Positions 2,735 to 61,340 of a stretch of 62,959 bases of DNA are shown one piece after another (within the stretch, counting starts at the first letter, position 1; the number at the start of each line of letters is the position of its first letter). The DNA comes from Betaproteobacteria bacterium (lineage in GTDB: Bacteria; Pseudomonadota; Gammaproteobacteria; Burkholderiales; JACQAP01): the NCBI GenBank assembly GCA_025351455.1, contig JANXVW010000137.1, positions 1 through 62,959 of the forward strand, read 5' to 3'. The position numbers and the translations under genes are program-made. The notes under the pieces were generated by a model. That model was not told the origin of the DNA. It saw only the letters and a list, made by a program, of their open reading frames with translations, and searched no databases.

Positions 2735-3175
2735 CTAGCTTCCTGCGGTAAGCAGTTGGTCGAGCCGCTGGCGCAGCGATCGATTGAATCCTGCCGGCAC
2801 CGGGCGCGCGTTCTCGCGCGCTTTGGCCGACCAGACTGAATTCGGAAAATGGGGATCGTCGGCGAATCGCGGGATAACGTGCCAGTGCAGGTGCGGCACG
2901 ACATTGCCAAAGCTGGCGAGATTGATTTTGGCCGGTGCCAGGAATTCGCGCAGCAATCCCTCCACTGTGTAGACAATGCGCATCACCTTCGCACGATCCG
3001 CCTCGGATAAGTCCGTCATCTCCTTCGCGTGCGCATTCAGAATGACCCGGCAAAATCCGGGATGATCCGCGTCGCCGACCAGCACGACGCGGGCAAAACC
3101 GTCACCCCAGAGGACTTCGCCGCCTGGCTGCATGCAAAGCACGCAGCCGGCGGCTGGTGATTGATCATTGGTCAT
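2735..3175 (-). CDS. HIT family hydrolase
   Basis: Histidine triad HLHWHVIPR, preceded by a CVLC motif; 146 aa. Confidence 0.85.
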   Translation of the reverse strand: MTNDQSPAAGCVLCMQPGGEVLWGDGFARVVLVGDADHPGFCRVILNAHAKEMTDLSEADRAKVMRIVYTVEGLLREFLAPAKINLASFGNVVPHLHWHVIPRFADDPHFPNSVWSAKARENARPVPAGFNRSLRQRLDQLLTAGS

Positions 3176-3277
3176 TGGTGACTGGTGACTGGTGACTGGT
3201 GTTAAAAATTAGATCCTCTCTTGAGAGTTGAATCGACGTCCGATATCCGACGAAGTCGGACACCAATTACCAATCAC
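3154..3277. repeat. Heptamer-array inverted element (TGGTGAC/TGGTGAT family)
   Basis: Positions 3154-3202 hold seven consecutive 7-mers: CTGGTGA TTGATCA TTGGTCA TTGGTGA CTGGTGA CTGGTGA CTGGTGT. Positions 3261-3277 hold CACCAATTACCAATCAC in the opposite orientation, and the same 17-mer recurs at 14007-14023. The left array overlaps the first codons of the HIT gene. Confidence 0.8.
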
Positions 3278-3285
3278 GGGGTTCT

Positions 3286-6200
3286 TCAGAGAAGAACCCT
3301 TTCGATGCCGCCGTTATTGGCTTTGGCGACATAGTCCGCCATCCAGTTCTCGCCTAGCACATGTTTGGCAATCTCCACCACGATGTAGTCCGCGGTGGTA
3401 CCGGAGTCATTGTCGTAGCGCGACAGGCCCTGCAGGCAGGACGGGCAGGAAGTGAGAATCTTCACATCGCCCTTGAATCCATCCGTGCGCAGATTGTCGG
3501 CGCCTTTGCGCATTTCCTCTTCCTTGCGGAAACGCACCTGCGTGGAAATGTCGGGTCGTGTGACGGCCAGTGTGCCGGATTCTCCACAGCAACGATCGTT
3601 CAGCGTCACTTCCGTTCCCATCAGCTTGGTGACCACCTTCAGCGGCTGATAAGTCTTCATCGGCGTGTGGCAGGGATCGTGGTACATGTAGCGCACGCCG
3701 GTCACGCCTTCGAGGCGTACGTTTTTCTCCAGCAGGTATTCATGGATGTCGAGCAGCCGGCAGCCGGGGAAAATCTTGTCGAATTCGTATTTCTGCAATT
3801 GGTCCATGCAGGTTCCGCAGGACACCACCACCGTCTTGATGTCGAGGTAGTTCAGCGTATTGGCCACACGGTGAAACAGCACGCGGTTGTCGGTGCTGAT
3901 CTTCTGTCCTTTTTCCGCTTCACCAGCGGAAGTCTGCGGATAACCGCAGCACAGGTAACCGGGCGGCAACACGGTGATGGCGCCGACTTCGTACAACATG
4001 GCCTGGGTCGCGAGTCCCACCTGGCCGAACAGGCGCTCGCTGCCACAGCCCGGAAAATAGAAAACCGCGTCCGAATCTTCGTTCACTTTTTTCGGATCGC
4101 GGATCACCGGCACCATGCGGTTGTCTTCGATATCCAGCAACGCGCGCGAGGTCTTCTTCGGCAACCCGCCCGGCATCGGCTTGTTGATGATGTGGATCAC
4201 CTGCGCCTTGATCGACGGTTTGCCGAGCGTGGCCGGCGGATGCTTCACCTGCTCCTGAATCAGGCCCAGAGATTTCCCCGCGCGATAAGCCAGGCGCTGC
4301 GCGCGGAAGCCCCACTCGATCATGATTTTGCGGGTGACCTTGATGGTGTTCGGGTCGGTCGCGTTCAGGAACAGCATGGACGCGGCGGTGCCGGGATTGA
4401 ATTTCTTCTTGTTCTGGCGGCGCAGGAAATTGCGCATCGCGATCGATACGTCGCCGAAGTCGATGTCTACCGGACAGGGATTGAGGCACTTGTGGCAGAC
4501 CGTGCAATGATCGGCGACGTCGGAAAATTCGTCGAAGTGCCTGAGCGAGACCCCTCGGCGGGTCTGCTCCTCGTATAGAAAAGCCTCGATGAGCAGCGAC
4601 GTGGCGAGGATCTTGTTGCGCGGCGAATACAGCAGGTTCGCGCGCGGCACGTGGGTCGCGCACACCGGCTTGCACTTGCCGCAACGCAGGCAATCCTTGA
4701 TCGAATCGGAAATCTCGCCGATCGCGCTCTGCTCCAGGATCAGGCTCTCCAGTTCCAGCAGGTTGAAGCTGGGCGTGTAGGCGTTGTCGAGATTGGCGCC
4801 GGCCAGCAATTTACCCCGGTTGAAGCGCCCTTCGGGGTCCACGCGCTTCTTGTACCGCGCAAAGCTGTCCATTTCCTGCGGCTCGAGGTATTCCAATTTG
4901 GTAATGCCAATGCCGTGCTCGCCGGAGATCACACCGTTCAATGCCCGCGCCAGCTTCATGATGCGCGCAACGGCGACATTGGCTTCGTGCAGCATCGCGT
5001 AGTCGTCCGAATTGACCGGAATATTGGTATGCACGTTGCCGTCCCCGGCGTGCATGTGCAACGCCACGAACAACCGGCTTTTCAGGATGCGTTTGTGGAT
5101 GGCATTGATTTCAGCGCGGATCGGATCGAACGCGCGACCGTCGAAAATCTGCATCAGCGGCACGCATACCTCTGTCTTCCAGGACACACGAAGTGCATGG
5201 CTTTGAAGAGCGTGAAAAACCGTCGAGTTCGAGGTTTCTCCCTCACCCCTCGCCCCTCGCCCCTCACCCCTCGCATCGAGATCGCCAATCGGCGCATCGA
5301 GATTTTCGAGCATCCACTGCCACCGCTCTCGCGTCGAGCGCACCAGTTCGGTCGCGTTGGCCGGCCGGCCGCCGAGCACGTCGCCCTGCGGCAGCTTTTC
5401 GGCCTCCTGGTGCACGCGCAGCTCGCCTTGCAGCAATTCCTCCATCGCATCGAGCAGGCGGATCTTGTTCTTCAACGACAGTTCAATGTTGATGCGCTCG
5501 ATGCCGTCGGAGTAATCGCCGAGGCGATCGAGCGGAATGACCACGTCTTCGTTGATCTTGAAAGCGTTGGTGTGCCTGGCGATCGCGGCCGTGCGCGAGC
5601 GGTCGAGCCAGAACTGTTTGCGCGCTTCCGCCGAAACCGCAATGAAGCCCTCGCCGCCACGGGCGTTGGCAATCCGCACCACGGCGGAGGCGGCTTCGCC
5701 GACCGCCCTGTCGTCCTCGCCGACGATATCGGCGAGCAATACCATCTTCGGCCGGCCGCCGCGCTTGGCTTTGGTGGCATAGCCGACGGCCTTCACATAG
5801 CGCTCGTCGAGGTGCTCCAGTCCGGCGAGCGTCGCGCCGCCGGGACGGCGGTCGAGGAACGCCTTGATTTCCACGATCGAGGGCACGGAGTGGGCAACCT
5901 GGCCGTAGAACTCCAGGCAGACGGTGCGCGTATGCGCCGGCATCTTGTGCAGGATGAAGCGCGCCGACGTGATGATGCCGTCGCAACCTTCCTTCTGCAC
6001 GCCGGGCAGGCCGGCGAGAAATTTATCGGTGACATCCTTACCCAGGCCTTCCTTGCGAAACTGGCGTCCGGGCACTTCGAGGATTTCGGGTTCGCCTTGC
6101 GGCATCCTGCCGTCGCGGCCGAAGCGCGTGATGCGGAAGCGCGCCAGTTCCTGATCGTGGATTTTGCCGAGGTTGTGGTCGATGCGTTCGACCAGCATCC

Positions 6201-7182
6201 ACTCCGCCTGCGGCGTCACCATTCGCCACGAGGCAAGATTGTCGATCGCCGTACCCCACAGCACCGCTTTCTTGCCACCCGCGTTCATGGCGACGTTGCC
6301 GCCGATACACGACGCATCCGCCGAAGTCGGGTCGACGGCGAATACGCGGCCGGCGGCGTCTGCCGTTTCCATGACGCGGCGGGTGACCACGCCGGCGCCG
6401 CAGTGGATAGTCGGCACCGGTTCCGGCAATCCCGGCAGGGGCGTCATTTCCACGCCGCTCAGGGTTTCCAGTTTCTCGGTGTTGATGACCGCGGACAGTT
6501 TATCGAGCGGAATCGCGCCGCCGGTGTAGCCGGTACCGCCGCCGCGCGGAATGATGGTCAGCCCGAGCTCGATGCAGGCCTGCACCATGGGCTGCACTTC
6601 TTCTTCGGTGTCGGGATAGAGCACGACGAAAGGATATTCGACGCGCCAGTCGGTCGCATCGGTTACGTGCGACACGCGCGCCAGGCCGTCGAAAGCGACG
6701 TTGTCGCGGCGGGTGATGCGCGTAAACCGGCGCAAAGCCTTGCGCCGCAGCTTCGTGGTTTCCTCGAAGTCGCGCTCGAAATCGTCCACCGCCTGGTGCG
6801 CCGAGGCGAGCAACTGGGCGACTTTGTCGGTTACGTTGCCGGCCTCTTCGCCTTCGCCACTGTCCGGCCCGGTCCGGCGCAGTTCGATTTGATGCAGGCG
6901 ATGGCGCAATGCTTCGACCAGCGCGGTGCGGCGCCGTGGATTGTCCAGCATGTCGTCCTGCAGGTAGGGGTTGCGATCGACGACCCAGATGTCGCCCAGC
7001 ACTTCATAGAGCATGCGCGCCGAACGGCCGGTGCGGCGCTGGCTGCGCAGCTCGTCGAGCCTCTGCCACATCGGCGCGCCGAGCAGGCGGATCACGATTT
7101 CGCGATCGGAGAACGACGTGTAGTTGTAGGGGATCTCGCGAAGCCGGATGCCGGTGGAAGCAAAGGGGGGAATCGGTTGCAT
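3286..7182 (-). CDS. Large DUF3683 / FAD-linked oxidase (GlcD-like) / 4Fe-4S plus CCG-domain (GlcF-like) fusion oxidoreductase
   Basis: 1298 aa. The N-terminus has [17 protein letters not shown] (DUF3683-like). A FAD-binding PCMH region follows ([14 protein letters not shown]). Two ferredoxin-type clusters are present ([14 protein letters not shown]; [14 protein letters not shown]). The C-terminus has CCG-type motifs ([15 protein letters not shown]). Confidence 0.85.
5238..5274. repeat. Heptamer array (CACCCCT/CGCCCCT) inside the oxidoreductase CDS
   Basis: ctccct CACCCCT CGCCCCT CGCCCCT CACCCCT cgc on the plus strand. It encodes [11 protein letters not shown] in the minus-strand reading frame, and the gene stays open through it. 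Confidence 0.8.
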
Positions 7183-7212
7183 CTGTTTAGGACTTCAGGA
7201 CGGGAAAAGAAT

Positions 7213-13174: not shown

Positions 13175-13251
13175 TGGCGCGCCCGAGACGATTCGAACGT
13201 CCGACCACTGCCTTCGGAGGGCAGTACTCTATCCAGCTGAGCTACGGGCGC
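13175..13251 (-). tRNA. tRNA-Arg (anticodon CCG)
   Basis: Folded by hand: GCGCCCGTAGCTCAGCTGGATAGAGTACTGCCCTCCGAAGGCAGTGGTCGGACGTTCGAATCGTCTCGGGCGCGCCA. It has a 7-bp acceptor stem, anticodon loop CTCCGAA, T-loop TTCGAAT and an encoded CCA. Confidence 0.9.
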
Positions 13252-13912: not shown

Positions 13913-13930
13913 GCTGCTGCGCTCGCCGTG

Positions 13931-14025
13931 AATGGTGATTGGTAATTGGTGATTGAGAGGCGCGGCGATGCCGCGCCTTTTTATTTCCTGATTACCATTC
14001 ACGAATCACCAATTACCAATCACTG
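13931..14025. repeat. Heptamer-array inverted element (TGGTGAT/TGGTAAT family) enclosing a terminator
   Basis: GTGATTGGTAATTGGTGATT at 13935-13954 is the perfect reverse complement of 14004-14023. There is also an outer pair, GAATGGT / ACCATTC. Confidence 0.85.
13958..13985 (+). terminator. Rho-independent terminator downstream of the cytochrome c gene
   Basis: AGGCGCGGCGATGCCGCGCCT stem-loop followed by TTTTTATTT. Confidence 0.75.
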
Positions 14026-16584: not shown

Positions 16585-17517
16585 TCAACGATCGAGCACC
16601 AGTGCCTTGAAGCCGAGTTCCTTTTGCACGCGTTGCGCGGCACGGTTCGCTTCCTCGCGGCTGGGATAGGGACCGGCATGGACCCGGTAGAGTCCGCCTT
16701 TCTTGTAGACATTCATAGAATCGGCCAGCCAGCCGAGATCCATGCGCATCTTGTGCAGGAAAGCATCGGCATTGCCGGGCGCCGAGAATGCGCCAAGCTG
16801 GATGAAGATTCCGCCAGGCTCCGCGCTGACGGCGGCCGTCGTGGCCGGCGCAGCTGCCACTGGCGCCGCGACTGCTACTGGCGCAGGAACCGACGCGGGT
16901 TCAGGCGCTGCATTCGCCGTCACCGGAGCCGGCGCATCTTCGCCGGGGATGATCGCTTCGACGTCGACCAGGCCACTGCCGCGCCCGAGCAGGCCCAGGC
17001 GCTGCGCGGCCGCGTAGGAGAGGTCGATCAGCCGGTCTTCGTGAAACGGCCCGCGATCGTTCACGCGAACGATAACCGATTTGCCCGTGGTGACATTCGT
17101 CACGCGCGCGTAGCTCGGCAGAGGCAGCAGCGTGTGCGCCGCGCTCATCGCGTACATGTCGTATATCTCGCCGGAGGAGGTTTTCTGCCCGTGATAGCGC
17201 TTGCCGTACCAGCTTGCCACGCCGCGCGCCTTGTAGGGCGTGAGCCTGGTATACGGCGTATAGGCGTGGCCGAGTACCGCATACGGCCGGCTGGTGAATT
17301 TGTTGATCGGTTCGATTTGCGGCGTCGGTTCGGGAATCGAACCCAGGTTCACCGGCGGATTGGCGCCAGGGCCATCGTCGAGATAATAGCCGCCGGGCTT
17401 TCCCGCCGACGCGGGGCGTGTCGGCGCGCTGCCGCAACCGGCGAGCGCGATGGCAACTAGCGTCGCCGCCGCGAGGACCCGGGGCGCGGGACTCAGGACT
17501 AAGTAGATGTTGCCCAT
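16585..17517 (-). CDS. rlpA: Septal ring lytic transglycosylase RlpA with C-terminal SPOR domain
   Basis: Lipoprotein signal ...IALAGC, DPBB domain GVASWYGKRYHGQKTSSGEIYDMYAMSAAHTLLPLPSYARVTNV..GKSVIVRVNDRGPF, and a C-terminal SPOR domain (IFIQLGAFS...YRVHAGPY). I preferred the start at 17517 (MGNIY...); 17562 is also possible. Confidence 0.85.
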   Translation of the reverse strand: MGNIYLVLSPAPRVLAAATLVAIALAGCGSAPTRPASAGKPGGYYLDDGPGANPPVNLGSIPEPTPQIEPINKFTSRPYAVLGHAYTPYTRLTPYKARGVASWYGKRYHGQKTSSGEIYDMYAMSAAHTLLPLPSYARVTNVTTGKSVIVRVNDRGPFHEDRLIDLSYAAAQRLGLLGRGSGLVDVEAIIPGEDAPAPVTANAAPEPASVPAPVAVAAPVAAAPATTAAVSAEPGGIFIQLGAFSAPGNADAFLHKMRMDLGWLADSMNVYKKGGLYRVHAGPYPSREEANRAAQRVQKELGFKALVLDR

Positions 17518-17626
17518 CGATACATATCGCTGAAAATTATCATTCGAGAATGGCTGCGCCACGGGATTTGCTATTCGCTTTTCACTGAGTCCTAAGCCCT
17601 ACGTCCTACGTTCTGAGTCCTACGTC
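17489..17626. repeat. Heptamer-array inverted element (GGACTCA/GAGTCCT family)
   Basis: Left arm GGACTCA GGACTAA GTAG at 17489-17506. Right arm GAGTCCT AAGCCCT ACGTCCT ACGTTCT GAGTCCT ACGTC at 17587-17626. The arms overlap the rlpA signal-peptide codons and the last codons of rodA. Confidence 0.8.
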
Positions 17627-18714
17627 TGAACCAGACGTCGATGCGTGTGAATGCTCATCAGCAACCCGATGCCGAAAAGGATCGTCACCAGCGAAGTGCC
17701 GCCGTAGCTGATCAGCGGCAAAGGCACGCCGACCACCGGCAGAATGCCGCTCACCATGCCCATGTTGACGAACGCATAGGTGAAGAAAGTCAGCGTGATC
17801 GCGCCGGCGAGCAGACGCGTAAACAAGGTCGGCGCATTAGCGGCGATGACCAGGCCGCGCCCGATGACGAGCAGGAACAGCACCATCAGCACCATGTTGC
17901 CGACCATGCCGAATTCCTCGGAGTACACCGCGAAAATGAAGTCGGTGGTGCGCTCGGGCAGAAAGTCGAGGTGCGCCTGGGTGCCGTTCAACCATCCTTT
18001 GCCGAAAAATCCGCCCGAGCCGAGCGCGATCGTCGACTGGATCGTGTGATAGCCCGCCCCGAGCGGATCCTGCGACGGATCGAGCAGGGTCAGCACGCGC
18101 TGGCGCTGGTAATCGTGCAGCATGGACCACAGGAAAGGCAGGCTGGCGCCGCCGAGCATGCCAACGCCAACCAGGATCTTCCAGGACAGTCCGGCGAGGA
18201 ACAGCACATAAAAACCGGCGGCGGTGACCAGCAGCGCGGTGCCCAGATCGGGCTGCCGCGCGATCAGCAGCACAGGCACGATGACGAGTACCGCGCCGAA
18301 GACGAAATTGCGCGGTTTCAGGATCGCTTCATAGCGGTCGAAATACCAGGCCAGCAGCAGCGGCACGGCGATTTTCATGAGCTCCGAGGGCTGGATGCGC
18401 GTGAAGCCGAGATTAAGCCAGCGGCGCGCGCCGTTGACCACTTCTCCCGCAACCGCAACGCCGACCAGCAGGACCAATCCCACGATGTAGAGTGGCAGCG
18501 CGATTCGCGACAGGTAATGCAGCGGGACGTTGGCCGCAATCCACATGACGGTCAGCGCCGCGCAGATATTGATGATCTGTCCGGTCACGCGCTCGACGCT
18601 CTCCCCCGACGCGCTGAACAGGGTGATCAGGCCCATGATCAGCAAGGCCGCGACCAGTCCCATCAAATAACGGTCAATGTGTTTGACGAGGTAGACGAGC
18701 AGCCGGTTAATCAT
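17620..18714 (-). CDS. rodA: Rod shape-determining SEDS glycosyltransferase RodA
   Basis: 364 aa, polytopic, with ...GARRWLNLGFTRIQPSELMK... and ...LPERTTDFIFAVYSEEFG.... It lies downstream of mrdA. Confidence 0.9.
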   Translation of the reverse strand: MINRLLVYLVKHIDRYLMGLVAALLIMGLITLFSASGESVERVTGQIINICAALTVMWIAANVPLHYLSRIALPLYIVGLVLLVGVAVAGEVVNGARRWLNLGFTRIQPSELMKIAVPLLLAWYFDRYEAILKPRNFVFGAVLVIVPVLLIARQPDLGTALLVTAAGFYVLFLAGLSWKILVGVGMLGGASLPFLWSMLHDYQRQRVLTLLDPSQDPLGAGYHTIQSTIALGSGGFFGKGWLNGTQAHLDFLPERTTDFIFAVYSEEFGMVGNMVLMVLFLLVIGRGLVIAANAPTLFTRLLAGAITLTFFTYAFVNMGMVSGILPVVGVPLPLISYGGTSLVTILFGIGLLMSIHTHRRLVQT

Positions 18715-22087: not shown

Positions 22088-22110
22088 TCAGGGATGGAGC
22101 GAAAACCGCA

Positions 22111-22227
22111 AGGAGCGAGGGGGGAGGGGCAAGGGGTAACCCTTAATGCGAAGCCAGGTGAGGCGTCGCTGGCTATCGGTCGTTCCTCCGGTCACCCCTT
22201 ACTCCTCACTCCTGACCCCTCACTTCA
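22111..22227. repeat. Heptamer-array inverted element (AGGGGNA / CACCCCT family)
   Basis: Left arm 22111-22141: AGGAGCG AGGGGGG AGGGGCA AGGGGTA ACCC. Right arm 22193-22227: CACCCCT TACTCCT CACTCCT GACCCCT CACTTCA. It lies between mreB and mreC. Confidence 0.8.
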
Positions 22228-25210: not shown

Positions 25211-25314
25211 TAAGGGGTCAGGAGTGAGGCGCGCCTATGTCTTGCCGGTTAAAGGCCGTTCTGCCTGCTTTACCCTCACCGCTCACCGCTCACCCCTCAC
25301 CCCTCACTCCTCGC
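25211..25314. repeat. Heptamer-array inverted element (GAGGGGT / CACCCCT family) between gatA and gatB
   Basis: Left arm TAAGGGG TCAGGAG TGAGGCG at 25211-25231. Right arm TACCCT CACCGCT CACCGCT CACCCCT CACCCCT CACTCCT CGCC at 25271-25314. GGGGTCAGGAGTGAGG is the exact reverse complement of 22205-22220. Confidence 0.85.
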
Positions 25315-32126: not shown

Positions 32127-32621
32127 TTACGCGAGCGGTTTGGCCACCGAAAGCCGGCGCAGCATCTGCTGCACCGCGTCCGCTTTCATGTCCCGAAACA
32201 ACAGGAGTTGTTCCGATTCCTTGGCGAGCACCTCGGTATCGTCGTAGGTCATGTCGCGGTGCAGGTCGATCGTGCCGGGTTGCGCCAGATCGACCCCCGC
32301 GCGATCCGTCAGCCGATAGGTCACCCGGTAGCGAAGATCGAATTCACGCACCTTGCCGCCCGAAGACAGGGAAAGAATACGGTTCTCCTGCAGCTCGCCC
32401 GTTATCTTGAGCACCGCCTCCGCCTCATCCCGTCTGGACACGACTTTGGTCTGGCTGCCGGAACGGATCGCCCGCTCCAGGTCGCTGGCGAACTGTGAAT
32501 AACCGGCGGTTTCGATGAATATGGTCTTGTAAGGAATCGCCGCCTGGCCACGCAGCTGGAAGCCGCAGGAGGAGAGGCTCATTGCGACAAGAAAGAGCGC
32601 GATGAGCAGGACTGAGGACAT
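32127..32621 (-). CDS. lptE: LPS-assembly lipoprotein LptE
   Basis: MSSVLLIALFLVAMSLSSCGFQLRG (lipobox), 164 aa, downstream of leuS as usual. The ORF-track extension to 32894 runs through a repeat element and overlaps leuS, so I rejected it. Confidence 0.85.
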   Translation of the reverse strand: MSSVLLIALFLVAMSLSSCGFQLRGQAAIPYKTIFIETAGYSQFASDLERAIRSGSQTKVVSRRDEAEAVLKITGELQENRILSLSSGGKVREFDLRYRVTYRLTDRAGVDLAQPGTIDLHRDMTYDDTEVLAKESEQLLLFRDMKADAVQQMLRRLSVAKPLA

Positions 32622-32721
32622 CCCGCTGACAAGGCGTTCGCGGAGCGATCCGGGGCGGGAAGCGGGATTAGGGCGCGCTTCCCGCAGACGGCCGACTTCG
32701 TCGGTAACGAGTCCGCGCGCC

Positions 32722-32851
32722 GGACTCAGGACTAAGTGAAAAGCGGGCAAATGCACGCGAAGCGTCGAAAGACCCGCTGATCCAGCTTTCCGGTTCACTT
32801 GTTCGACCTCCAAACTTTTACCTGAGTCCCGAGTCCTAAGTCCCGAGTCCT
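32722..32851. repeat. Heptamer-array inverted element (GGACTCA/GAGTCCT family) between leuS and lptE
   Basis: Left arm GGACTCA GGACTAA GTG at 32722-32738, which shares GGACTCAGGACTAAGT with 17489-17504. Right arm GAGTCCC GAGTCCT AAGTCCC GAGTCCT at 32824-32851. GGACTCAGG can pair with CCTGAGTCC. Confidence 0.85.
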
Positions 32852-36536: not shown

Positions 36537-37424
36537 ATGTCGCGCAAGCATCCCATCATCGCCGTTACCGGTTCCTCCGGCGCCGGGACCACGTCGGTGC
36601 GCAAGACCTTCGAGAACATCTTCCACCTCGAACAGATCGACGCGGCGCTGATCGAAGGCGACAGTTTCCATCGTTATGAACGCGATGACATGCGCCGGCT
36701 GATCGACGCCTATGAACAGATCGGCGGCCAGGCCATCAGTCACTTCGGGCCGGAAGCAAACCTGTTCGAGGAACTCGAGGCCTTGTTCGGAGAATACAGC
36801 CAGCATGGCGGTGGCAATGCGCGGATCTATCTGCACAACGAGGAACGCGCTGCCCGTTATGGCCGCAAAGCCGGCACCTTCACGCCATGGGAGAAGCTGG
36901 CGGCGAACACCGACCTGCTGTTCTATGAAGGCCTGCATGGCGGCATCGTCACCGACAAGGTCGACGTGGCCCGCCACGTCGACCTGCTGATCGGCGTGAC
37001 TCCGACGGTCAATCTGGAGTGGATCCAGAAGATCAACCGCGACATGCAGGCGCGCGGTTACTCGATAGACGTGGTGACGCAGACCATCCTGCGGCGCATG
37101 TACGACTATGTGCACTACATCACGCCGCAGTTCTCACGCACCCATGTCAATTTCCAGCGCGTGCCGACGGTCGATACGTCCAATCCCTTCGTCGTGCGCG
37201 AGGTGCCGCGGCCGGAGGAAAGTTTCGTCGTCATCAGGCTATCGAATGCGGAGTACCTGAACGTGCCTTATCTGCTGGCCATGATCGAGGATTCCTTCCT
37301 GTCGCGGCCGGACACCATCGTCGTGCCCGGAACGAAAATGGAATATGCGATGCAGCTCATCCTGACGCCGATGATCCGCGATCTGGTCAATGAAAGCAGA
37401 AAGGCGCGCGAAACCAGGTCTTGA
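36537..37424 (+). CDS. prk: Phosphoribulokinase
   Basis: MSRKHPIIAVTGSSGAGTTSV (P-loop) ...IEGDSFHRY.R..M...; 295 aa from the internal ATG at 36537. Confidence 0.88.
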   Translation: MSRKHPIIAVTGSSGAGTTSVRKTFENIFHLEQIDAALIEGDSFHRYERDDMRRLIDAYEQIGGQAISHFGPEANLFEELEALFGEYSQHGGGNARIYLHNEERAARYGRKAGTFTPWEKLAANTDLLFYEGLHGGIVTDKVDVARHVDLLIGVTPTVNLEWIQKINRDMQARGYSIDVVTQTILRRMYDYVHYITPQFSRTHVNFQRVPTVDTSNPFVVREVPRPEESFVVIRLSNAEYLNVPYLLAMIEDSFLSRPDTIVVPGTKMEYAMQLILTPMIRDLVNESRKARETRS

Positions 37425-37590
37425 ACCACGGAGGGCACGGAGGAGAACCGGAAGAAAAAAGATGGAAAAAATGGCCGCGGTTCACTCATGGCGCCGGCCG
37501 GTAACCACCATCCATTGTGGTCCTTCAAATACGCGCCAAGTTTCTCACTTCCCCGGTTATTGTTCTTCTCCGTGTCCTCCGTGGTTCAAG
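37421..37590. repeat. Long imperfect inverted repeat (CACGGAG heptamer family) between prk and uvrD
   Basis: TTGAACCACGGAGGGCACGGAGGAGAAC at 37421-37448 pairs with GTTCTTCTCCGTGTCCTCCGTGGTTCAAG at 37562-37590. The core is about 113 nt. The right arm is followed by GTTTTG, so it may act as the prk terminator. Confidence 0.8.
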
Positions 37591-50029: not shown

Positions 50030-50260
50030 AATCTCCGTTCGCGTCCAATGGGCCGGTATCCGGGCTTGCGCTTCGGGCGTGCCGCCTTCCCATGAGGGTT
50101 CACCGTTGTTCCGGCCAGCCTTCACAGTGGCATCGTGACACGCCCCAATAGTCGCCTACCGTTGCGGGGGCAGCACAGGAATAGCGCCGCTGGGAGCATA
50201 CAGCCCCGGCAAACGCGCACCTGTTTCCCGTTTGACCCCTCCAAAGAAAATTGGGCGGGG
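50030..50260 (-). promoter_or_regulatory. Cobalamin (B12) riboswitch
   Basis: The minus strand reads ...GGGAAACAGGTGCG...GCTGCCCCCGCAACGGTA...GCCACTG...GGGAAGGC...AAGCCCGGATACCGGCC. These are the conserved core blocks plus a B12-box-like element at 50051-50067. The limits are approximate. Confidence 0.8.
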
Positions 50261-50447
50261 CACCCGAGAACGTGCGGCGATTCTAACCTATTGGCATGTG
50301 TGGCCGGCAAACGGGTTTGCCTCGTTGGGGCAAGTGGTCGGTTGTTGAGCCGCTCCAAGGTGGTCGAGAAGGGGCGTCACTACATATGCCAAAGCACATT
50401 CAAAAAAATCCGTTAGCAGTTGACTTGTCACGCTTTTCATAACTATA

Positions 50448-50978: not shown

Positions 50979-51156
50979 TGTCCCCTGCGGCGTTCGTCAG
51001 GCTGTAATTCTTTGAACCAATGTTAATCACCTTGGTTGCTGCCTAAAGTAGCGCTGTTGTGCGCGTCCCATCGGGAAGCGCCTGATGTGCTCGGAAAGCG
51101 ACCGCCTTGAACCCTAGGTTCAAGATGCCGGCCTGACGGGAATCGCGGGGGGCACC
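50979..51156 (+). ncRNA. ssrS: 6S RNA (SsrS)
   Basis: It is in the conserved position just after zapA. The 5' TCCCCTGCGGCGTTCGTCAGGC pairs with the 3' GCCTGACGGGAATCGCGGGGGG. The internal hairpin CCTTGAACCCTAGGTTCAAG matches E. coli CCUUGAACCAAGGGUUCAAG. The ends are accurate to about +/-5 nt. Confidence 0.8.
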
Positions 51157-60257: not shown

Positions 60258-60306
60258 CTAAAACGTAATTCGAATTCGTTGAGGGTGTTTAATCAGACCG
60301 CCTGGG

Positions 60307-60490
60307 CACCTGGACGATTTGGTCTCCCCATCACATTCGCACAGTGAACAAGGGTGTCGCCCATCGTTGCCCGGCGCAGCGCATTCATACTGCCGCCGCA
60401 CCTGGAAGATTTGGTCTCCCCATCACGCTCGCACAGCGAGCATGAGTGTCGCCCATCGTAGCCCGGCGCGGCGTCTTCATACTGCCGCCG
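60307..60490. repeat. Two-copy 92-bp tandem duplication spanning the atpG stop codon and the atpG-atpD spacer
   Basis: CACCTGGA(C/A)GATTTGGTCTCCCCATCAC...GTGTCGCCCATCGT.GCCCGGCGC.GCG...TTCATACTGCCGCCG occurs at 60307-60398 and again at 60399-60490. Each copy ends with TCATACTGCCGCC, which is the atpG stop codon plus its last codons. Confidence 0.8.
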
Positions 60491-61340
60491 CTCCGCCGAC
60501 GATCTCTGACAATTCTTTCGTGATGGCTGCCTGGCGGCTCTTGTTGTAAACCAGGGTCAGCTCGTCGATCAGCGTCGCGGCATTGTCGGACGCGGATTTC
60601 ATCGCCACCATGCGCGCCGATTGTTCCGACGCCATGTTTTCCGACACGCCCTGATAAACCACGGCCTCAATGTATCGCGTGAGCACCTGGTCCAAAACAA
60701 CCTTGGCTTCCGGCTCGTAGATGTAATCCCAGTTGCCTTCCGGCGTGCCAATCCGCTCACCGGTAAGTGGCAGCAATTGTTCCATCACCGCTTCCTGCTT
60801 CATGGTGTTGATGAAGCGGGTATAGAAAATGATCACGCGGTCGAAACGGTCTTTCGTGTAACCATCGAGCATGATCTTGACGGCTCCGATCAGATCTTCA
60901 AGCTTCGGCCGGTCACCCAGGGCAATCGACTGCGAAATGATGTTCGCGCCGAGACGCTGCATGAAACCGAGGCCCTTGCCGCCGATGCAACAGACATCGA
61001 TCTCTTCGCCCTCAGCCTGCCATTGCTTGTACTGGTTCAGCGCCATGCGCAGGATGTTGGTGTTCAGTGCGCCGCACAGGCCTTTGTCTGTGGTCACGAC
61101 GATGATGCCGACGCGCTTTACCGTATCGCGCTCGACAAGGAACGGATGGCGATACTCGGGATTGGCGTGCGAAATATGCGCCGCGACGTTGCGGATTTTC
61201 TCGGCATACGGACGCGCCGCACGCATGCGCTCCTGCGCCCTGCGCATTTTCGAAGCAGCGACCATTTCCATCGCCTTGGTGATCTTGCGAGTGTTCTGCA
61301 CACTCTTGATCTTGGTGCGTATTTCTTTTGTGCCCGCCAT
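60477..61340 (-). CDS. atpG: F0F1 ATP synthase subunit gamma
   Basis: [36 protein letters not shown]......[15 protein letters not shown]. Confidence 0.97.

Follow-up and report, generated by a model that had tools for sequence, protein, structure and literature searches.

Arrays of the heptamer GGGAATC number about 185 per genome in Xanthomonas; 89–93% of them are intergenic, and 70–75 occur as close convergent pairs (Rehm et al. 2015, PMC4692102). Their G-rich strand lies no more than 50 bp past a stop codon, or runs antisense just upstream of an open reading frame (ORF); they are rarer between divergent genes, vary in unit number between close species and are transcribed. Rehm et al. favoured quadruplex formation, which has been shown in vitro for such repeats (PMC4692102). 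Here we describe elements of this kind in a 62,959-nucleotide (nt) stretch of DNA, hereafter the window, from an uncultured genus of Burkholderiales (assembly GCA_025351455.1, contig JANXVW010000137.1, positions 1 to 62,959 of the forward strand). Each element, such as the one in the leuS-lptE spacer at 32722–32851, consists of two arms of tandem short words in inverted orientation around an unrelated core, and the elements are compared with cassettes that carry a gene for S23p (PF05635), a small four-helix-bundle protein.

S23p genes are found in intervening sequences (IVS) of 23S rRNA. The IVS of Coxiella burnetii has a 28-bp stem, is excised by RNase III and holds a decaying S23p ORF preceded by 2–3 strain-variable GACAGAT heptamers; it is considered a selfish element (Warrier et al. 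2016, PMC4990558). In Geobacter metallireducens, tandem heptanucleotide sites, mostly opposite-strand pairs, were read as regulator binding sites (Aklujkar et al. 2009, PMC2700814), and the TAACTGA repeats of Beggiatoaceae are nearly all direct and stand upstream of start codons (MacGregor 2015, PMC4679880). The present elements are likewise multicopy intergenic tandem heptamers, but those repeats were interpreted as regulator sites. The short tandemly repeated repetitive (STRR) sequences of cyanobacteria, reportedly described by Mazel and colleagues in 1990 and cited by Rehm et al. (PMC4692102), are said to be intergenic tandem heptamers with the words CCCCAGT, TTGGTCA and CAACAGT. Each of these is within one base of a word found here (TTGGTCA at 3167–3180 of the window; GAACAGT for CAACAGT; CCCAAGT for CCCCAGT), whereas STRR were described as direct arrays, without the paired inverted design, the polarity or the gene-bearing copies. 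Drosophila foldback (FB) transposons have long inverted arms of short tandem repeats, with variable arm length and heterogeneous central loops. Unlike the elements here they are eukaryotic, of kilobase scale and mobilised by a transposase, and homology is not implied.

The first-pass annotation of the window, made from its letters alone, could not assign the elements to a named family. They can in fact be placed, as they match the convergent heptamer arrays of Xanthomonas and Nostoc (PMC4692102) and the stem design of the S23p intervening sequences (PMC4990558). Like the GGGAATC/GGGGAYT arrays of Xanthomonas campestris, X. axonopodis and Nostoc PCC 7120, they are over-represented intergenic heptamers that form close convergent pairs and obey the same placement rule. 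Unlike those arrays, they use many words per genome and units of 7–11 nt and come from an uncultured genus, and the GGGNATC-type G-tract is absent from most words. As in the 23S rRNA IVS of Coxiella, Leptospira and Salmonella, the ends are inverted, the stem is long and the loop may hold a PF05635 gene, of which there are six such cassettes here; unlike the IVS, the elements lie between or inside protein-coding genes and are mostly gene-less. The elements therefore belong to an already described class. What is new is the many words, the several unit lengths and the evidence for a link to S23p, which is absent from the published description of the Xanthomonas and Nostoc arrays (PMC4692102); no paper linking PF05635 to genome-wide heptamer arrays was found among those searched. 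With a little better than even confidence, we consider the elements to be fold-back members of the heptamer-array class and, here, gene-less relatives of S23p cassettes with the same type of arm.

Results

Inverted tandem arrays in the window

The window corresponds to contig C157 in a 3.94-Mb assembly (G000 in our numbering of genomes) with 353 contigs, 61% G+C and 98.8% completeness. The nearest relatives of its GatA are in metagenome bins, at 89–90% identity, with Derxia at 73%. The GTDB genus holds 37 species genomes, which are fragmented metagenome bins. Arrays in the window were located with Tandem Repeats Finder, and dinucleotide shuffles were used as the model of chance.

Nine sites had been listed in the first-pass annotation as members of a single dispersed family, sharing an architecture in which two inverted tandem arrays flank an unrelated core in operon spacers. 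All nine exist and read as described, with period-7 arrays at each, and the single architecture was borne out, as were the operon flanks that had been named (MreB/MreC, GatA/GatB, RodA/RlpA, LeuS/LptE); ApaH follows the element at 13931. The leuS-lptE element (32722–32851; word GGACTCA/GGACTAA) has arms at 32722–32737 and 32821–32851 around a unique core. The rodA-rlpA element (17489–17629; CAGGACT/GGACTCA) has arms at 17489–17504 and 17585–17629, and its core is partly conserved across the genus. The string GGACTCAGGACTAAGT is shared by the two at 17489 and 32722, as had been noticed. At 3154–3277 the word is TGGTGAY, and a unique core separates a G/T-rich arm (about 3154–3203) from an A/C-rich arm (about 3259–3277); within this core lies a GAA-loop hairpin (3235–3261) similar to a small 36–39-nt insert considered below. 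The element at 13928–14025 (GGTGATT/GGTAATT; arms 13928–13955 and 13994–14023) stands between an unnamed 181-aa ORF and apaH, and its core contains a terminator-like hairpin, GGCGCGGCGATGCCGCGCC (13959–13977), followed by a T-run. The string CACCAATTACCAATCAC, correctly reported at 3261 and 14007, has an additional reverse complement at 13935.

The mreB-mreC spacer holds a GAGGGGN element at 22108–22227 (arms 22108–22137 and 22192–22224), and the gatA-gatB spacer a GAGGGGT/GAGTGAG element at 25211–25314 (arms 25213–25229 and 25273–25312). The reverse-complement match of GGGGTCAGGAGTGAGG between these two is real, its coordinates being 25214, not 25215, and 22204–22219. Four heptamer flavours had been claimed for the window, and three of them stand; the element at 37421–37590 is built of 9-nt CACGGAGRA units with a TTGAAC cap around a 115-nt core and belongs to a separate 9-mer family.

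The arms of six window elements pair, as predicted, in minimum-energy RNA folds of −33 to −59 kcal/mol (z −1.3 to −9.8). The values are −37.8 kcal/mol (z −3.8) for 3154–3277, −52.6 (z −9.8) for 13928–14025, −59 (z −3.5) for 22108–22227 and −53.3 (z −3.7) for 32722–32851. Heptamer words exceed chance in the window 12- to 40-fold: two tandem copies of TGGTGAY, with up to two mismatches, gave 12 matches against 0.98 expected, and two copies of GAGGGGT gave 12 against 0.30. Three of the window cores are found nowhere else in the genome. A search of the window at Rfam gathering scores returned no family for the elements.

Genome-wide census and polarity

For the census, genes were taken from a rough prediction of our own (3634 genes, whose cores cover 74% of the genome), and an inverted partner was defined as an array of the same word no more than 300 nt away, with at most two mismatches in 14. 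At equal score the whole genome contains 252 period-7 arrays, against 34, 90, 74, 41 and 33 for periods 5, 8, 10, 11 and 13, and 216 of the 252 lie outside gene cores. A same-word inverted partner accompanies 160 of the 252; direct partners were found for only 23, and for 24 the partner was an array with a different word. Same-word inverted partners were also found for 34 arrays of period 8, 183 of period 9, 33 of period 10 and 7 of period 11, and none beyond chance for periods 5, 6, 12 and 13 across the whole genome. The heptamer is thus not the only unit, as had been supposed; units range from 7 to 11 nt. After merging, 263 paired elements were obtained (98 heptamer, 27 octamer, 119 nonamer, 17 decamer and 2 undecamer), with a median length of 132 nt and making up 0.9% of the genome. 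These counts are lower bounds, because contig ends fall at arrays (34 of 706 ends are within 120 nt of one). The census asked for in the earlier annotation thus shows words strongly enriched in spacers, and no described family of repetitive extragenic palindromic (REP) sequences or miniature inverted-repeat transposable elements (MITE) with a known enzyme fits them. Cores have little in common, no 10-mer being shared by more than 4 of 99 elements, and the lengths of left and right arms are uncorrelated (rho 0.05).

The G/T-rich arm is the left arm in 250 of the 263 elements, and this polarity is the same on both strands since the design is strand-symmetric. Of the 13 scored exceptions, most have CGTGACT-family arms, whose composition is balanced and which point the usual way, so that clear reversals number only 2. 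Polarity holds just as strictly whether spacers are co-directional, convergent (39:1) or divergent (23:1), and for arrays with an inverted same-word partner it is 157:1. Most words lack a run of three G (GGTGATT, CAGGACT, GGTGAAC, CGTGACTGT, CGTGAATGT, CACGGAGRA), while GAGGGGN and GGGGATT do hold G-runs; the nonamer family CACGGAGRA has the conserved TTGAAC cap.

Several explanations of the polarity and the words were considered and rejected. Avoidance of exposed C-rich RNA, as in Rho loading, is not indicated by unpaired arrays, whose orientation on the mRNA strand is unbiased (20:20), and start-codon-proximal constraints do not account for convergent spacers, which are just as strict. Chi-like arrays shielding the flanks from RecBCD after breakage of the core would fit the geometry, but the words are too diverse for one recognition sequence. 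The likeness of G-rich words to an extended Shine-Dalgarno (SD) sequence is post hoc and is not significant for any single word. Telomerase-like addition of repeats by a reverse transcriptase was rejected because no PF00078 gene was found in this 98.8%-complete genome.

The elements fill spacers from stop codon to start codon, and the median distance between an arm and the adjacent stop is 6.5 nt. A start codon, usually ATG, was found 0–24 nt past the C-rich arm in 43 cases, and an SD-like motif is present in 3 of these 43 against 31% of background genes. The background figure, for a 4-nt motif at −17 to −5 among genes with an unambiguous start in the rough calls for this genome, itself suggests weak SD use in the lineage, or errors in start calls. 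Co-directional, convergent and divergent spacers account for 70, 18 and 11% of elements and for 70, 15 and 15% of all spacers.

S23p genes lie between paired arrays

This genome has six PF05635 genes, three of them broken, and all six lie between an upstream G-rich array and a complementary downstream array. The arm words at these loci are GAGGGGC, AGTGATTA/CCAATCAC, GCGATTR, GAGGGGT, CGTGAATGT and AATCGGA. One of the six proteins matches XCC0516 of Xanthomonas campestris, whose structure is solved (2GSC), with an E value of 3e-27. In the genus, PF05635 genes are present in 32 of 37 genomes, 1–7 in each; most of the 29 cassettes fetched from it have the same bracket of arms, and in most the S23p start codon is 2–60 nt after the G arm. 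An IVS in this organism's own 23S rRNA was also sought; the 23S rRNA gene is absent from this assembly.

Array words and S23p subtypes tend to occur together. The GGGGATT-type S23p is found in exactly five genomes, four of which are the four richest in GGGGATT arrays (51, 37, 13 and 12) and the fifth of which has 3; all genomes without that subtype have at most 10 (Mann-Whitney p 9e-5, uncorrected for kinship). Similarly, the three genomes richest in CGTGAATGT arrays (219, 106 and 104 matches) all have the matching S23p subtype (p 0.004, again uncorrected). Mapped on the S23p tree, the arm word changes 12 times, the lowest number possible, compared with 22.6 when labels are shuffled.

One site can hold either an S23p cassette or a gene-less element as alternative alleles. 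On contig C53 of this genome, a 485-nt cassette with 9-mer arms carries a truncated S23p gene; at the orthologous site of G004, with flanks 92–94% identical, the element is gene-less and 157 nt long, a 23-nt core lying between GGTGATT/GGTGACT arms. S23p is retained at the orthologous locus in five other species, so gene loss is the simpler direction.

Two cassettes in relatives differ in orientation. One (L138, G011:C193) is inverted relative to the orthologous flanks of L133, L135, L137 and L140, as expected from recombination between inverted arms. The other (L157, G046:C18) is of reversed polarity, having a CCACGAG array upstream and a CGTGGTA array downstream.

Orthologous spacers and word repertoires

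Comparison of orthologous spacers, as the first-pass annotation had proposed, revealed both presence/absence and unit-number differences among relatives. When a 13.5-kb stretch was compared by BLAST, alignments broke at the elements in nearly every relative. At rodA-rlpA a G-left/C-right pair is present in 7 of 8 relatives examined, the eighth (G016) having a single arm. The word changes with the species (GGACTCA; alternating GTGCTGA/GGACTGA; GAGGGAC; GTGCTGN), both arms are always of the same word in each, and the core is partly conserved. At mreC-mreB, all ten genomes examined have GAGGGGN-type arms, and the cores differ even from that of G004, where the coding sequence is 94–96% identical. 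The gatA-gatB spacer has no element in two species, the genes overlapping (ATGA) in G016 and being separated by 26 nt in G045. Three genomes have a lone C-rich array there. A GGTGAWY-type array containing a small insert is present in G004 and G010, an 8-mer pair on a second contig of G004, and GAGGGGN pairs with different cores in this genome and two others. At the 37421 site the closest relative, G004, shows no more than a plain hairpin of 48 nt bearing the same cap.

Word repertoires are species-specific and, from the sequences compared, tend to follow the S23p subtypes present. Three tandem copies of GGTGATT gave 57 matches here, 92 in G004 and none in 15 of 25 genus genomes searched, and three copies of GTGCTGN gave 155 in G042, 145 in G045 and 1 here. 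Outside the genus, no arrays were seen at 80 Burkholderiales gatA loci; of 400 further genomes of the class, 7 have the GGTGATT triplet, and pairs among them keep the G-left design.

A 36–39-nt sequence with two GAA-loop hairpins, TTATGGGCGAAGCCCGGTATCCAGCGAAGTCGGGCA, occurs inside C-rich arms at about nine loci of this genome (contigs C5, C84, C309, C123, C125, C192, C18 and C174), with weaker copies in the window at 3241–3261 and 32683–32703. In the mreC-mreB spacer it is present in G004 and absent in G045, so it is probably a small mobile insert in its own right. Very small mobile repeats that Elhai and colleagues are said to have described in cyanobacteria in 2008 are similar to it.

A RAYT homologue with its own ends

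A search for a RAYT (REP-associated tyrosine transposase) or other cognate enzyme had also been suggested. The genome does encode a homologue (NF047646; 85.7 bits, the cut-off being 80), but it does not track the arrays. The gene, of Y1-transposase type (G000:C90:2-802; L103/L111), has its own 22-nt inverted ends, GTCAGGTCTTGCAATATAGCAT, which are rare, with a handful of loose matches in the genome. At E ≤ 1e-10, eight genus genomes have no RAYT match, and at least five of these (G045, G023, G010, G016 and G024) carry arrays; 8 of 10 RAYT loci have no arrays nearby. Among three orthologous copies (G000; L112, from G041; L113, from G009), two are nested within arrays, which fits cores as landing sites. 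The G041 unit lies whole between G-rich and C-rich tandem arrays. The G000 unit is followed by a CCTATTTGTT tandem array and adjoins a HigB/HigA-like gene pair.

Discussion

Intergenic heptamer repeats, such as STRR and the Xanthomonas arrays, and the S23p genes of intervening sequences have both been without explanation for more than 30 years. Three kinds of evidence tie the arrays to S23p cassettes here, namely position, co-occurrence and one allelic site. We read the elements as selfish or near-neutral DNA rather than as dedicated regulators. Their arms would evolve at the DNA level. Slipped-strand mispairing could alter the unit number, and the arms might be kept matched, and the word spread, by conversion between loci or by template switching inside the quasi-palindrome, a route of mutation known from E. 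coli. The fixed polarity may have been inherited from gene-bearing cassettes, in which the purine-rich arm would precede the gene whichever way the core is oriented. Insertion between stop and start codon would be tolerated if the stem in the transcript is cut or bypassed harmlessly, as in rRNA.

Several observations weigh against descent of the elements from S23p cassettes. Four genomes with many CGTGAATGT arrays (G045, G052, G014 and G046) lack the matching subtype, and G004, which is array-rich and 100% complete, has no PF05635 match. The co-occurrence tests take no account of kinship, and the genomes behind them are metagenome assemblies in fragments, with breaks at arrays. The agreement of tree and arm word reflects co-inheritance, not recognition, because clade members stand at orthologous loci with flanks 75–90% identical. 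Decay of S23p genes within gene-less cores was rejected, since tblastn on 202 such cores found no S23p remnant above the reversed-sequence control. The words CAGGACT, GGTGAAC, CACGGAGRA and GCGAAGGAC have no gene-bearing copy in this assembly, and no element of the window carries a PF05635 ORF, which was seen at the six other loci of the genome and at the one site allelic with a gene-less element. Beyond that site, derivation would rest on shared arms and co-occurrence, and the proposal gives no account of how a new site is seeded.

S23p might, as a possible but doubtful extension, act in trans, each subtype recognising its own word in DNA or RNA and promoting the maintenance, expansion or copying of arrays. 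If so, the genome-wide changes of word between species, the joint switch of word in both arms of an old element and the fixed polarity would be explained. The S23p/Avd-like proteins encoded in rRNA intervening sequences, and the heptamer repeats that have been known since 1990, would then also have a function. The tie between arrays and S23p can be tested in a culturable carrier, as Xanthomonas campestris has both arrays and a solved S23p structure (2GSC).

Among other explanations, the elements could be selected RNA structures that punctuate operons as RNase III sites, 3' stabilisers, terminators or a means of bringing stop and start codons together for re-initiation without an SD sequence. 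The closeness of arms to stop codons (median 6.5 nt), the low share of SD-like motifs past C-rich arms (3 of 43 against 31%) and the pairing of arms in minimum-energy folds (z down to −9.8) all speak for such a role; moreover this genome has a gene for RNase III, an enzyme that cuts IVS stems built in the same way (PMC4990558), and the Xanthomonas arrays are transcribed (PMC4692102). Selection on a sense-strand RNA stem was nevertheless not detected. In 161 co-directional elements the sense RNA was no more stable than the antisense (mean difference +1.55 kcal/mol, p 0.017, in the wrong direction), and G.U-compatible mismatches, 91 in sense and 123 in antisense, showed no sense-strand bias, which fits maintenance at the DNA rather than the mRNA level. 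Arm lengths are also uncorrelated, all kinds of spacer are occupied roughly by their abundance (70/18/11% against 70/15/15%), and words and cores are replaced between close relatives. A selected RNA role is ranked second because the RNA-level test was negative, and we regard it as unlikely. It is still less probable that the elements are plain simple-sequence repeats, arising in place by slippage and quasi-palindrome template switching and unrelated to S23p or to any mobile unit. Such an origin would account for the unit-number differences between orthologues, for a 48-nt plain hairpin in G004 where expanded 9-mer arms and a 115-nt core stand here, for cores that hold local signals (the terminator-like hairpin at 13959–13986, the conserved rodA-rlpA core) and for the many arrays of G004, which has no PF05635 match. 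Independent origins, however, predict both polarities, and 2 clear reversals were seen in 263; the same few words recur at dozens of loci, the repertoire shifts genome-wide between species, and all six S23p genes lie inside arm pairs.

Movement in trans of non-autonomous, MITE- or REPIN-like elements by a transposase such as the RAYT of this genome seems very improbable to us. A RAYT homologue exists, a spacer that is empty in some species contains various families in others, the 9-mer family has its conserved TTGAAC cap, and the double-hairpin insert at mreC-mreB is present in G004 and absent in G045. The elements are moreover short, hairpin-forming, intergenic and abundant, as REP, BIME and REPIN sequences are. 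Their cores are unique, however, which means that elements are not copied as wholes; the ends of the 9-mer family show no sign of a target duplication; and the RAYT has rare 22-nt ends of its own, is unmatched in eight genomes of which at least five have arrays, and has no arrays near 8 of its 10 loci. Because its ends differ and it is not distributed as the arrays are, it was rejected as the cognate enzyme. The earlier statement that the elements are not REP/BIME, classical MITE or CRISPR sequences is upheld by their unrelated cores and short contiguous units in two inverted blocks. Their arms are tandem short words, not the 20–40-nt imperfect palindrome with a GTAG/CGTC head of REP, BIME and REPIN sequences, and co-occurrence with RAYT fails; MITE are set aside by the unrelated, unique cores without shared 10-mers and the lack of a target duplication at the 9-mer ends, and CRISPR by units of 7–11 nt, not 24–48-nt repeats with spacers. 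Regulation through G-quadruplexes or i-motifs, as proposed for the Xanthomonas GGGAATC arrays, is scarcely credible as an overall account. The words GAGGGGN and GGGGATT do have G-runs, and quadruplexes of such repeats were shown in vitro (PMC4692102), so the proposal may still hold for them; most words, however, lack a three-G run and share the same architecture, polarity and placement, and the word list thus removes the only published structural hypothesis as a general one.

The elements occupy about 1% of the genome, break short-read assemblies, move start and stop codons and can be read through as protein linkers. For these reasons annotation pipelines should recognise them.

Other features of the window

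Two of the nine sites are not paired elements. The single arm reported as intergenic at 5238–5274 is a real array of GAGGGGY, but it lies on the minus strand within a 1298-aa ORF (3286–7182, minus strand), where it is read in frame (13 residues) in a hypervariable linker. The product is a GlcD/GlcF-like fusion, and the array encodes a Gly/Arg/Glu-rich linker between its FAD-oxidase and Fe-S halves; in G004, G016 and G042 both arms of an element are seemingly translated in this linker, for example as GREALGARHEALG...PLTPHPLPLT. The single arm claimed at 7189–7203, just upstream of the start of the 1298-aa gene, consists of two imperfect units (AGGACTTC AGGACGG) with no partner arm, and is not separable from chance.

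At the start of rlpA (17440–17562), the ATG/GTG of five relatives is GCG in this genome. The sole in-frame start here is an ATG within the element core (17562), which would add about 28 residues from the core and the C-rich arm.

Another repeat of about 50–100 nt, at 32600–32725, adjoins the leuS-lptE element; copies are present on contigs C174, C275 and C102 of this genome, and several in G004 at about 80% identity. At 60306–60491 a 92-nt unit is repeated twice in tandem (88% match), unrelated to the short-word arrays. Rfam matches in the window are a cobalamin riboswitch (50033–50282, minus strand), 6S RNA (50979–51155, plus strand) and a tRNA (13178–13251, minus strand).

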